The notes: generated from the sequence alone by a model not told the origin. A DNA stretch of 64,000 nucleotides from Escherichia coli (GCF_003334335.1 NZ_QOWQ01000004.1); one strand, 5' to 3'. Counted from the first letter of the stretch, positions 26,074-30,879 are shown. A program made the numbers and translations.

Positions 26074-27927
26074 TTACCTTTCCAGTCTTCTTGCTCCACG
26101 TTCAGAGAGACGTTCGCATACTGCTGACCGTTGCTCGTTATTCAGCCTGACAGTATGGTTACTGTCGTTTAGACGTTGTGGGCGGCTCTCCTGAACTTTC
26201 TCCCGAAAAACCTGACGTTGTTCAGGTGATGCCGATTGAACACGCTGGCGGGCGTTATCACGTTGCTGTTGATTCAGTGGGCGCTGCTGTACTTTTTCCT
26301 TAAACACCTGGCGCTGCTCTGGTGATGCGGACTGAATACGCTCACGCGCTGCGTCTCTTCGCTGCTGGTTCTGCGGGTTAGTCTGCATTTTCTCGCGAAC
26401 CGCCTGGCGCTGCTCAGGCGAGGCGGACTGAATGCGCTCACGCGCTGCCTCTCTTCGCTGCTGGATCTTCGGGTTAGTCTGCATTCTCTCGCGAACTGCC
26501 TGGCGCTGCTCAGGCGAGGCGGACTGATAACGCTGACGAGCGGCGTCCTTTTGTTGCTGGGTCAGTGGTTGGCGACGGCTGAAGTCGTGGAAGTCGTCAT
26601 AGCTCCCATAGTGTTCAGCTTCATTAAACCGCTGTGCCGCTGCCTGACGTTGGGTATCTCGTGTAATGACTGGTGCGGCGTGTGTTCGTTGCTGAAACTG
26701 ATTTGCTGCCGCCTGACGCTGGCTGTCGCGCGTTGGGGCAGGTAATTGCGTGGCGCTCATTCCGCCGTTGACATCGGTTTGATGAAACCGCTTTGCCATA
26801 TCCTGATCATGATAGGGCACACCATTACGGTAGTTTGGATTGTGCCGCCATGCCATATTCTTATCAGTAAGATGCTCACCGGTGATACGGTTGAAATTGT
26901 TGACGTCGATATTGATGTTGTCGCCGTTGTGTTGCCAGCCATTACCGTCACGATGACCGCCATCGTGGTGATGATAATCATCATTGTCATGATGATGATG
27001 GTCATGATCGTCGTCGTCCCAGTCGATGCTGCTGAATAGTGCGTACGTGGTAGCAACGCCCATGCTATAGCCGAATCCGCGTACAAAGCTGTCAACAAAC
27101 GGTTCTCCGGCTGGTGGTGGCAGATAAACCGGCGGATACGCAGTATTGGCCCAGTTCCCGTAAACCACGGTTGGGTTGTAGTTGGGAATATAGACCACAT
27201 CAGGATTGGCGGGCTCAATGGAAATGACGGTTGTTGCCGGCTCTGTAATGACGGGGTTGGCAGTTAAAACTGTATTGGATGGTATGACGGGTGCCGTGAC
27301 TGTCTGTTTTACCGGTACAGCTTTCTTCGTTGTGGTAATAACTTTCTGTTCGGTTGATGACTTCAGCGAGCCGGTTTGTTGCGCCAGTTGCCGCAATCGC
27401 TGTACCGAGTCCATCACGTCCTGCGGCTGGGCCAGAAAAGCATCGCCCAGGTTTTGCACCCATTGCGGGTTTTCGCCCATCAATGCCATCAATTGTGGAA
27501 AGGCCACCAGTGATTTAACGCTGGCGTCCCACGGCTGGTCAGATACCGCCTGAATAGCAGCATCGCCTTGTTTAAGTGGATTATCGTGCGACCATTGCAC
27601 TGCTTGAGCAACGTTTGTCGGATAGGTTGATGCCATCAGCACCTGCGAAAGTAGGGCGTCGGGATACAGCGCGACGGGCGCGACCCATTGATCTATTTGT
27701 GCAGTGCTGAATGCGGATTTGACGACGGCGGGTGTTACGGGAGGTGCGGAAACCGTTGCAGGAAACGTAACCGCGGCAGCGTCAGACACAGCCAGTTGTG
27801 TCGATTGCGGTTCCACAGGCGCTTCCACTGTGCGGCTTTTTATATATAGCCCGGTAGAGGCGGCACAAAGCCCGGCACTGCAAATTAGCGCCAGCACATG
27901 GGGTTTAAACGGCAAAGTCATTTTCAT
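26074..27927 (-). CDS. yacH: Secreted repeat-containing protein YacH (DUF3300 family, function unknown)
   Basis: 617 aa; N-terminal signal peptide; His/Asp-rich tract; C-terminal 32-aa tandem repeats QSASPEQRQ... Confidence 0.93.
   Translation of the reverse strand: MKMTLPFKPHVLALICSAGLCAASTGLYIKSRTVEAPVEPQSTQLAVSDAAAVTFPATVSAPPVTPAVVKSAFSTAQIDQWVAPVALYPDALLSQVLMASTYPTNVAQAVQWSHDNPLKQGDAAIQAVSDQPWDASVKSLVAFPQLMALMGENPQWVQNLGDAFLAQPQDVMDSVQRLRQLAQQTGSLKSSTEQKVITTTKKAVPVKQTVTAPVIPSNTVLTANPVITEPATTVISIEPANPDVVYIPNYNPTVVYGNWANTAYPPVYLPPPAGEPFVDSFVRGFGYSMGVATTYALFSSIDWDDDDHDHHHHDNDDYHHHDGGHRDGNGWQHNGDNINIDVNNFNRITGEHLTDKNMAWRHNPNYRNGVPYHDQDMAKRFHQTDVNGGMSATQLPAPTRDSQRQAAANQFQQRTHAAPVITRDTQRQAAAQRFNEAEHYGSYDDFHDFSRRQPLTQQQKDAARQRYQSASPEQRQAVRERMQTNPKIQQRREAARERIQSASPEQRQAVREKMQTNPQNQQRRDAARERIQSASPEQRQVFKEKVQQRPLNQQQRDNARQRVQSASPEQRQVFREKVQESRPQRLNDSNHTVRLNNEQRSAVCERLSERGARRLER
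26170..26540 (-). repeat. yacH: 96-nt tandem coding repeats (about 4 copies) at yacH 3' end
   Basis: DNA period ~96 nt (ctggcgctgctcaggcgaggcggactgaatgcgctcacgcgctgc...); protein repeat QSASPEQRQAVRE(R/K)MQTNP; approximate. Confidence 0.85.
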
Positions 27928-28281
27928 AATTCGGATCTCAAGGAAATCGCAATGGTCGGCGAACTGCCACCCGCAGGTGCTGTGAATCCGAGTATAAAGA
28001 GGCGGTAGTTTAAATTTTGACTAATCTTGGGATTCGTTGAGAAAGGTGATTATCACCATGCGAATTAACGAAGTTTTTACGGAGGGAAACAATCTCTAGA
28101 CCATCCTTAACGATTCAGCCACTTTTTTATGTTGCTTTTTTGTAAACAGATTAACACCTCGTCAAAATCCTGCTATTCTGCCCGTTGCGGTACTGGGCAT
28201 TTACCCTACAAACTGCTGTCTCACAGGAGCGTGAAGAGAATCGCCTGCCGCACTATGACAATGAGAGCGAGGAGAACCGTC

Positions 28282-30879
28282 GTGCTAGAAGAATACCGTA
28301 AGCACGTAGCTGAGCGTGCCGCTGAGGGGATTGCGCCCAAACCCCTGGATGCAAACCAAATGGCCGCACTTGTAGAGCTGCTGAAAAACCCGCCCGCGGG
28401 CGAAGAAGAATTCCTGTTAGATCTGTTAACCAACCGTGTTCCCCCAGGCGTCGATGAAGCCGCCTATGTCAAAGCAGGCTTCCTGGCTGCTATCGCGAAA
28501 GGCGAAGCCAAATCCCCTCTGCTGACTCCGGAAAAAGCCATCGAACTGCTGGGCACCATGCAGGGTGGTTACAACATTCATCCGCTGATCGACGCGCTGG
28601 ATGATGCCAAACTGGCACCTATTGCTGCTAAAGCACTTTCTCACACGCTGCTGATGTTCGATAACTTCTATGACGTAGAAGAGAAAGCGAAAGCAGGCAA
28701 CGAATATGCGAAGCAGGTTATGCAGTCCTGGGCGGATGCCGAATGGTTCCTGAATCGCCCGGCGCTGGCTGAAAAACTGACCGTTACTGTCTTCAAAGTC
28801 ACTGGCGAAACTAACACCGATGACCTTTCTCCGGCACCGGATGCGTGGTCACGCCCGGATATCCCACTGCACGCGCTGGCGATGCTGAAAAACGCCCGTG
28901 AAGGTATTGAGCCAGACCAGCCTGGTGTTGTTGGTCCGATCAAGCAAATCGAAGCTCTGCAACAGAAAGGTTTCCCGCTGGCGTACGTCGGTGACGTTGT
29001 GGGTACGGGTTCTTCGCGTAAATCCGCCACTAACTCCGTTCTGTGGTTTATGGGCGATGATATTCCACATGTGCCGAACAAACGCGGCGGTGGTTTGTGC
29101 CTCGGCGGTAAAATTGCACCCATCTTCTTTAACACGATGGAAGACGCGGGTGCACTGCCAATCGAAGTCGACGTCTCTAACCTGAACATGGGCGACGTGA
29201 TTGACGTTTACCCGTACAAAGGTGAAGTGCGTAACCACGAAACCGGCGAACTGCTGGCGACCTTCGAACTGAAAACCGACGTGCTGATTGATGAAGTGCG
29301 TGCTGGTGGCCGTATTCCGCTGATTATCGGGCGTGGCCTGACCACCAAAGCGCGTGAAGCACTTGGTCTGCCGCACAGTGATGTGTTCCGTCAGGCGAAA
29401 GATGTCGCTGAGAGCGATCGCGGCTTCTCGCTGGCGCAAAAAATGGTAGGCCGTGCCTGTGGCGTGAAAGGCATTCGTCCGGGCGCGTACTGTGAACCGA
29501 AAATGACTTCTGTAGGTTCCCAGGACACCACCGGCCCGATGACCCGTGATGAACTGAAAGACCTGGCGTGCCTGGGCTTCTCGGCTGACCTGGTGATGCA
29601 GTCTTTCTGCCACACCGCGGCGTATCCGAAGCCAGTTGACGTGAACACGCACCACACGCTGCCGGACTTCATTATGAACCGTGGCGGTGTGTCGCTGCGT
29701 CCGGGTGACGGCGTCATTCACTCCTGGCTGAACCGTATGCTGCTGCCGGATACCGTCGGTACCGGTGGTGACTCCCATACCCGTTTCCCGATCGGTATCT
29801 CTTTCCCGGCGGGTTCTGGTCTGGTGGCGTTTGCTGCCGCAACTGGCGTAATGCCGCTTGATATGCCGGAATCCGTTCTGGTGCGCTTCAAAGGCAAAAT
29901 GCAGCCGGGCATCACCCTGCGCGATCTGGTACACGCTATTCCGCTGTATGCGATCAAACAAGGTCTGCTGACCGTTGAGAAGAAAGGCAAGAAAAACATC
30001 TTCTCTGGCCGCATCCTGGAAATTGAAGGTCTGCCGGATCTGAAAGTTGAGCAGGCCTTTGAGCTAACCGATGCGTCCGCCGAGCGTTCTGCCGCTGGTT
30101 GTACCATCAAGCTGAACAAAGAACCGATCATCGAATACCTGAACTCTAACATCGTCCTGCTGAAGTGGATGATCGCGGAAGGTTACGGCGATCGTCGTAC
30201 CCTGGAACGTCGTATTCAGGGCATGGAAAAATGGCTGGCGAATCCTGAGCTGCTGGAAGCCGATGCAGATGCGGAATACGCGGCAGTGATCGACATCGAT
30301 CTGGCGGATATTAAAGAGCCAATCCTGTGTGCTCCGAACGACCCGGATGACGCGCGTCCGCTGTCTGCGGTACAGGGTGAGAAGATCGACGAAGTGTTTA
30401 TCGGTTCCTGCATGACCAACATCGGTCACTTCCGTGCTGCGGGTAAACTGCTGGATGCGCATAAAGGTCAGTTGCCGACCCGCCTGTGGGTGGCACCGCC
30501 AACCCGTATGGACGCCGCACAGTTGACCGAAGAAGGCTACTACAGCGTCTTCGGTAAGAGTGGTGCGCGTATCGAGATCCCTGGCTGTTCCCTGTGTATG
30601 GGTAACCAGGCGCGTGTGGCGGACGGTGCAACGGTGGTTTCCACCTCTACCCGTAACTTCCCGAACCGTCTGGGTACTGGCGCGAATGTCTTCCTGGCTT
30701 CTGCGGAACTGGCGGCTGTTGCGGCGCTGATTGGCAAACTGCCGACGCCGGAAGAGTACCAGACCTACGTGGCGCAGGTAGATAAAACAGCCGTTGATAC
30801 TTACCGTTATCTGAACTTCAACCAGCTTTCTCAGTACACCGAGAAAGCCGATGGGGTGATTTTTCAGACTGCGGTTTAA
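28282..30879 (+). CDS. acnB: Aconitate hydratase B / 2-methylisocitrate dehydratase AcnB
   Basis: 865 aa with GTG start ([16 protein letters not shown]); track ORF extends 51 codons upstream. Confidence 0.96.

Follow-up and report, generated by a model that had tools for sequence, protein, structure and literature searches.

The open reading frame at 26074-27927 on the minus strand of the window (the whole stretch of E. coli DNA that we analysed, 64,000 nucleotides long) is the E. coli K-12 gene yacH (b0117), annotated yet uncharacterised. Its product belongs, as a solo member, to DUF3300, a very large family of exported envelope proteins, and carries a low-complexity loop within the DUF3300 core and a strongly basic Gln/Arg-rich tail after it. 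The gene differs in length between strains, an ordinary polymorphism that keeps the frame, follows lineages and is no on/off switch. Our best overall explanation joins this identity, the architecture and the length variation to a presumed role in periplasmic stress, and taken as a whole we would give it an even chance of being right.

The yacH locus and its features

The reading frame is the single long one on the minus strand at this location and encodes 617 amino acids. It is 100% identical to yacH from K-12-type genomes, for which RefSeq gives the label yacH or DUF3300 domain-containing protein; this agreement, the match to the full length of the Pfam model and the location flanked by acnB and lpd all mark it as the same gene and the same family. 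The features discussed below are the following.

26074..27927, minus strand: yacH coding sequence, 617 aa plus stop (ORF list; 100% match in RefSeq)
27832..27927, minus strand: putative N-terminal export signal or signal-anchor, aa 1-32, MKMTLPFKPHVLALICSAGLCAASTGLYIKSR (sequence; AF2 helix at aa 9-22)
27721..27831, minus strand: Pro/Ala/Thr/Val-rich linker, aa 33-69 (pLDDT ~50; 27% identity across genera)
26929..27705, minus strand: DUF3300 match, aa 75-333, with a helical subdomain (70-185), a linker and a beta subdomain (233-303) (PF11737; AF2)
26947..27024, minus strand: Asp/His tract, aa 302-327, a disordered loop encoded by CAT/GAC/GAT triplet runs (pLDDT below 50)
26773..26928, minus strand: post-tract core, aa 334-385, NINIDVNNFNRIT...WRHNPNYRNGVPY (family consensus V.INVNR.N ... 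W.H.P.HR.GVPY; pLDDT 81-95)
26524..26730, minus strand: degenerate helices rich in Gln and Arg that precede the array, aa 400-468 (RDSQRQAAANQF, RDTQRQAAAQRF, QQQKDAARQRY) (AF2)
26428..26523, minus strand: repeat unit R1, aa 469-500 (94% nucleotide identity to R2)
26332..26427, minus strand: repeat unit R2, aa 501-532 (in-register 96-nt unit)
26236..26331, minus strand: repeat unit R3, aa 533-564, diverged (61-67% nucleotide identity to R1/R2)
26140..26235, minus strand: repeat unit R4, aa 565-596, terminal and half-conserved (44-54% nucleotide identity to the others)
26077..26139, minus strand: basic C-terminal tail, NNEQRSAVCERLSERGARRLER (pLDDT below 50)
26033..26061, no strand assigned: bidirectional intrinsic terminator common to the convergent lpd and yacH (AAAAAAGCGGC-loop-GCCGCUUUUUUU)
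27928..28281, no strand assigned: divergent yacH-acnB control region, 354 nt (gap between annotated genes, RefSeq loci)

A yacH match is present in every one of the 5,426 complete E. coli genomes searched, and at least 80% of the gene lies in one place in 5,370 of them. One complete genome has the gene interrupted by an IS1 insertion, and yacH is dispensable, deletion mutants being viable and employed in several studies. Apparent plasmid-borne copies were discarded, as the matches are Mb-sized records with a plasmid label. The gene sits between lpd (convergent) and acnB (divergent), a position that is maintained across the Enterobacteriaceae: acnB adjoins all 11 orthologues examined, and lpd does too wherever the retrieved sequence extends that far.

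The 70-nt gap between lpd and yacH holds two hairpins, the second of which is bordered by an A-run and, at its opposite end, by a U-run and hence reads as a bidirectional terminator at 26033-26061; the 91-nt intergenic stretch that includes this hairpin (25995-26085) has a folding z of -4.2. With a terminator between it and lpd, yacH is monocistronic. Simple scans upstream of yacH for a CpxR box and a sigma-70 promoter gave matches at chance level, none of them convincing, and an Rfam scan of the locus returned no family at its gathering score.

The DUF3300 core and the Asp/His tract

DUF3300 (PF11737) is the sole Pfam match of YacH (E=1.5e-78; aa 75-333, model positions 2-227 of 227). The family counts 9,616 representative proteins at E<=1e-3, and YacH has the conserved core residues and the fold common to its other members. 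The consensus of 110 aligned members begins with a signal peptide, a helical domain (LAPIALYPD..LSQVLMASTYP...WDPSVKSL..FP) and a linker, continues through IEPA.P.VVYVP.YNP.VVYG.W.YPAYPP into a Gly-rich hydrophobic stretch ending in ALWG..DW, and closes with V.INVNR.N, W.H.P.HR.GVPY and a basic tail. The AF2 model of the YacH core (aa 67-389) has a pLDDT of 87.6 and a pTM of 0.86, with the helical part above a pLDDT of 95. The core consists of two subdomains with a fold of their own, and searches of the PDB and of an AlphaFold sample gave no structural relative beyond DUF3300. YacH likewise had no sequence match in the PDB and no NCBIfam match.

Among enterobacterial orthologues, identity to the K-12 protein is highest in the helical domain (83%) and the beta region (75%), followed by the N-terminal hydrophobic segment (67%) and the post-tract core (62%); it is 48% in the tract, 38% in aa 386-458, 27-33% in the linkers and 22% in the repeat region, the lowest of the protein. 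At the N-terminus two Lys precede ~19 hydrophobic residues, and an export signal there is plausible. Because this segment is unusually conserved across genera (67%, against 27% for the adjoining linker) and is followed by the Pro/Ala/Thr/Val linker, its pattern suggests that it may be a retained inner-membrane anchor and not a cleaved signal peptide. Canonical AxA signals are found in relatives. Some strains have a VEAP duplication in the aa 33-69 linker (for example the locus L004, discussed below).

YacH differs from other DUF3300 proteins in its Asp/His loop and its 32-aa units, both particular to this lineage, and in having no DUF2950 neighbour. A DUF2950 gene lies directly downstream of the DUF3300 gene at 5 of 9 informative non-Escherichia loci, the place that at yacH is taken by the terminator and the convergent lpd. 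The pairing has also been described in rhizobia, without any characterised member known at the time (PMC4653623), and as a functional clue DUF2950 itself is without a solved relative. A link between His-rich DUF3300 members and the absence of DUF2950 did not hold up, one His-rich member (P0177) having a DUF2950 neighbour.

The original prediction described a His/Asp-rich tract at about 26905-27035. The tract is real and lies within that span, at 26947-27024, where the 26 residues of DWDDDDHDHHHHDNDDYHHHDGGHRD include 9 His and 11 Asp. It is inserted directly after Trp303 of the DW dipeptide, a residue conserved in at least 90% of the 110 aligned DUF3300 members, and forms the sole long disordered loop in the AF2 core model. 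A tract of this kind, ~12-25 residues long and placed after S(S/N)IDW, occurs in 11 of 11 enterobacterial orthologues spanning Escherichia, Atlantibacter, Enterobacter, Kluyvera, Franconibacter and others. In 104 DUF3300 members, the His content is 9.4% over the 30 residues that follow the conserved Trp and 0.7% upstream of it. A His-rich site after this Trp is thus a recurring trait of DUF3300, of which the enterobacterial Asp/His loop is one version. Such recurrence argues for a function of the tract, from which metal binding does not follow.

The length of the tract is itself polymorphic, a point that had gone unremarked when the tract was first described. Among 120 distinct YacH sequences, a table that over-represents rare variants, there are more than 20 tract variants, with 16-38 residues from Trp303 to G(N/D)GW, and several of these variants are each found on 3 to 326 contigs, which excludes assembly noise. 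The distinct sequences include 12 tract alleles on one otherwise identical protein backbone, and the length and number of the repeats are unchanged across the 19 proteins that have this backbone. Yet 48 of 60 complete genomes have the tract length of K-12; the remainder differ by +6 nt (6 genomes), -6 nt (2), +24 nt (1) and -39 nt (3), which makes five length classes in all. The last of these alleles encodes the tract DDDDHDHHHRD, with 4 His, in an intact 604-aa gene, and the tract spans 11-32 aa in the complete genomes read for it. A Salmonella isolate has an 8-bp deletion in the tract that leads to a frameshift and a truncated protein (PMC10048834). Loop length would shift by slippage in the CAT run (3 to 6 His), the GAC run and the GAT triplets, and also by 21-nt duplications (the DNDDYHH unit).

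Repeat units and their number across E. coli

The claim of four near-identical 96-nt tandem repeats holds in part. There are four in-register units, at 26140-26523, but near-identity is limited to R1 and R2, which agree pairwise at 90 of 96 nt and 28 of 32 aa; R4 matches the other units in its first half only (SASPEQRQVF.EKVQ). Tandem Repeats Finder reports 2.5 copies at 26307-26547, with 88% matches and a score of 384. In the models, each 32-aa unit folds as two Pro-capped helices of ~16 residues each (SPEQRQAVRERMQT and NPKIQQRREAARERIQ), a pairing that the first description of the repeats had overlooked. Similar single helices lie upstream of the array (RDSQRQAAANQF and RDTQRQAAAQRF; AF2 helices at 400-414, 423-436 and 457-469) and downstream of it (NNEQRSAVCERL), the RD.QRQAA motif of the pre-array helices being common to the orthologues. 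Related genera have expanded a 16-residue Pro-capped helix motif independently, and a tail motif, ALSGNDSRSPSW, is retained in other genera and absent from E. coli YacH.

In the full-length AF2 model the tail is made of helical hairpins with pLDDT ~80-87. The repeat region (122 residues) has a net charge of +13, a pI of 11.5 and 41% Gln plus Arg. A basic tail is general in DUF3300, with a median net charge of +19.5, and the tail sequences are lineage-specific and often repetitive, with unrelated units.

Copy number was compared in 60 evenly spaced complete E. coli genomes with the C-terminal 540 nt of yacH as query. The match has the four-unit span in 32 genomes, is one unit shorter in 16 and partial in 12. 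Five loci were read, four representing the three kinds of partial match and one the one-unit-shorter class. On reading, the partial matches are three-unit alleles of phylogroup-B2 type (the ST131-type loci L001 and L002, and L003) and one two-unit allele (L004). This gives four units in 32 genomes (~53%), three in 27 (~45%) and two in 1 (~2%), frequencies that are indicative only, since the genome collection leans to clinical lineages. Further variants come from the protein database: one allele has five units (P0006), another has 17 aa duplicated within a unit (P0049), and a third has a 45-aa duplication ahead of the array (P0001).

When units are classed as M (R1/R2), V (R3) and T (R4), the arrangements seen are M-M-V-T, M-V-T, M-M-T, M-T and M-M-M-V-T. 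At least five arrangements imply that different units have been gained or lost recurrently in different lineages. The expectation that the repeats are prone to copy-number change is thereby borne out: there are 2, 3, 4 or 5 units, and their number is not invariant. Three units are also present in E. albertii and in one divergent E. coli; this, combined with R1 and R2 being 94% identical, points to a recent duplication as the source of the fourth unit in K-12. Tail length would alter through unequal recombination between the 96-nt units. All length alleles of yacH seen in E. coli are in frame, with changes that come in triplets, 21 nt and 96 nt. The two ST131-type loci that were read encode identical proteins, and every O157 genome sampled has the four-unit span.

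Possible roles of YacH and competing readings

The original prediction called the function of YacH unknown and the literature agrees, with yacH still listed among uncharacterised genes (PMC12133099). The gene is under CpxR regulation, its deletion mutant survives protamine better, and protamine and cecropin A repress its expression (PMC9600279). Under butanol stress its expression is strongly lower in a rob deletion mutant (PMC7537768), ampicillin induces its promoter (PMC8865558), and it is among the genes affected by a cathelicidin peptide, with a value of 1.39 (PMC6737244). Published data thus connect yacH to envelope and cationic-peptide stress only (CpxR, Rob), and we infer that YacH would work in the periplasm within the response to such stress.

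Metal binding by YacH, as originally proposed, is plausible as a guess from composition. More specifically, the Asp/His loop may bind divalent metal ions or protons with low affinity, a reading that we hold tentatively and at somewhat less than even chances. Two points speak for metal binding: every one of the 11 enterobacterial orthologues retains the tract, and more distant relatives have a raised His content at this position. Against it, there are intact natural alleles with just 4 His in the tract. Neither Pfam nor a profile search with the tail alone gave a metal-related domain, the literature examined names no metal-related regulator of yacH, and a literature search pairing yacH with zinc or 'histidine-rich' returned nothing relevant, only authors named Yach. 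The basic tail, for its part, could bind polyanionic envelope components, with unit number setting its reach or valency, though we regard this as doubtful; weak constraint on the tail, the least conserved part of YacH, counts against it.

Flexible loops rich in Asp and His occur in periplasmic zinc proteins such as ZnuA and ZinT. YacH resembles them as an exported, folded protein interrupted by a disordered loop that is acidic and rich in His. It differs in that it does not have the fold of a solute-binding protein, with no match to these proteins by Pfam, NCBIfam, PDB sequence or fold, and in that the literature examined describes no Zur or other metal regulation of yacH.

The reading that competes most directly with a function for these segments is that tract and array are neutral low-complexity filler in a loop and a tail that put up with insertions and deletions, their composition a by-product of slippage-prone triplets and the function residing wholly in the conserved DUF3300 core. 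Tract and tail indeed vary more than the rest of the protein, tracts of 11 to 32 aa occur in complete genomes with an intact gene, unit number runs from 2 to 5, other DUF3300 tails have unrelated lineage-specific repeats, and the gene is dispensable and sometimes disrupted. However, an Asp/His composition persists at the exact site in 11 of 11 orthologues despite diverged surroundings, distant relatives that have no triplet tract are still His-enriched there, and a net basic tail (median +19.5) is a family-wide trait; we place this reading on the unlikely side, as one that still deserves weight. A different topology would follow if the Gly-rich hydrophobic stretch before Trp303 were a transmembrane helix, leaving the N-domain in the periplasm and the His tract and basic tail in the cytoplasm, with nucleic acid or ribosomes as conceivable ligands of the tail. 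Family-wide, this conserved stretch (G..FG.G.....ALWG) has a suggestive hydropathy, the best 19 residues having a median of 1.5 and 38% of members reaching at least 1.6, and the strongly positive part downstream fits the positive-inside rule. But AF2 makes strands of the stretch within one compact, confident domain that spans both sides of it, which reduces the transmembrane helix to a minor rival, one that we consider quite improbable.

In-frame repeat polymorphism of the VNTR type occurs in bacterial envelope and surface proteins, and yacH is similar in that unequal recombination appears to add and remove whole units, so that length differs from strain to strain with the frame intact. One could go further and see the repeats as a contingency locus, in which the copy number of a surface antigen switches rapidly under host immune selection, as in-frame variation in several independent arrangements and an extracellular location predicted for YacH in one paper might suggest. 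The range, however, is narrow (2-5), the units are mostly diverged, with similarity sufficient for efficient recombination in R1/R2 only, and the alleles are fixed within lineages, as the ST131-type and O157 genomes show. Repeat length is constant across the 19 proteins of one backbone, unit sizes that are all multiples of three make on/off switching impossible, and there is no sign of an immune or phase-variation function for yacH. Rapid switching of this kind is thus very improbable. Equally remote is the proposal that the SPEQRQ helices are LTXXQ helices of the CpxP/Spy type, so that the tail would be a Cpx-controlled periplasmic chaperone or adaptor module. The likeness to CpxP, Spy and ZraP lies in a Cpx-linked envelope protein with a tail of basic helical hairpins that start with S/T-P-x-x-Q, and ASPEQRQAVRERMQ visibly resembles LTXXQ helices. 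Yet S/T-P-x-x-Q is a generic helix N-cap, neither the whole protein nor the tail alone matched LTXXQ (PF07813, PF13801) or Metal_resist at E<=10, and a repeat-unit profile run against the PDB found no CpxP, Spy or ZraP chain at E<=10. With no profile match in Pfam or the PDB at any threshold used, kinship of the tail with CpxP and Spy is disfavoured.

Returning to the periplasmic stress role that we favour, a bolder form of it would make the His-rich site after Trp303 a metal- or proton-sensing centre of DUF3300, expanded in Enterobacteriaceae into a mutable Asp/His loop that, with the polybasic repeat tail, would tune susceptibility to cationic antimicrobial peptides under CpxR and Rob. We consider this improbable; if it were true, natural length alleles would differ in phenotype between E. 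coli lineages. For the gene itself, the finding chiefly shows that a dispensable gene varies in length in an ordinary, in-frame manner, which may be of use as a minor strain marker at most. The interest rests mainly on DUF3300, a large, structurally unique and uncharacterised family. yacH is part of the still-uncharacterised fraction of the best-studied bacterial genome, and DUF3300, with ~9,600 representative clusters, is without a characterised member or a structural relative. If the loop binds metal or protons and the tail binds the envelope, this would be the first function for DUF3300 and a possible account of the protamine phenotype.

Intergenic regions on either side of yacH

The gene yacH is convergent with lpd on one side and divergent from acnB on the other. 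The short gap that separates it from lpd contains two hairpins, the second of which has flanking runs on both sides:

26004-26073, convergent lpd-yacH gap, two hairpins
26033-26061, second hairpin of the gap, GC stem with an A-run and a U-run at its flanks

Because its GC stem is bordered by both an A-run and a U-run, the hairpin at 26033-26061 is likely to be a bidirectional terminator. The gap measures 241 nt in strains of phylogroup-B2 type (L003 and L004) compared to 70 nt in the window, a difference which would imply an insertion here. On the other side, the mechanical ORF list gives acnB as 916 residues starting at 28129, and thus includes the region 28129–28281, whereas in RefSeq loci the gene starts 354 nt from yacH, at about window position 28282. 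The RefSeq start makes the divergent yacH-acnB control region 354 nt long.

Variation and disruption of yacH

An IS1A element interrupts yacH in strain SW071611 (NZ_CM129855.1, match H1); the gene is evidently dispensable. Length variation also affects the N-terminal linker (residues 33–69, window 27721–27831), where VEAP is duplicated in strain GmF052 (L004). Two alleles are strongly divergent: that of AST85 (L027), where megablast matches only 5% of the query and the protein has two identical 34-residue units, and that of SCPM-O-B-8794 (L014), with a protein identity of 84%. These alleles may come from cryptic Escherichia clades; both genomes carry the E. coli label. The records that hold the copies in the plasmid collection (H161-H169) are non-mobilizable and range in size from 0.4 to 4.9 Mb; they are probably mislabelled chromosomes or chromosome fragments.

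Neighbours and tails of other DUF3300 proteins

Outside Escherichia, five of nine informative loci (L007, L008, L009, L029 and L032) have a DUF2950 gene as the immediate downstream neighbour of the one for DUF3300, and the two genes overlap in L007 and L009. Both families are uncharacterised, and a search by sequence found no PDB relative of DUF2950. Other DUF3300 proteins (P0127, P0201, P0134 and those at loci L018 and L023) have basic tails with their own, unrelated tandem repeats, for instance GDARERAREVASNRAAGS in four to five copies, and STPEQRQARRENVQQRVS and NPTPQQQQRREAIKARHD in three copies each. Judging from these tails, repeat expansion is a family-wide DUF3300 trait.
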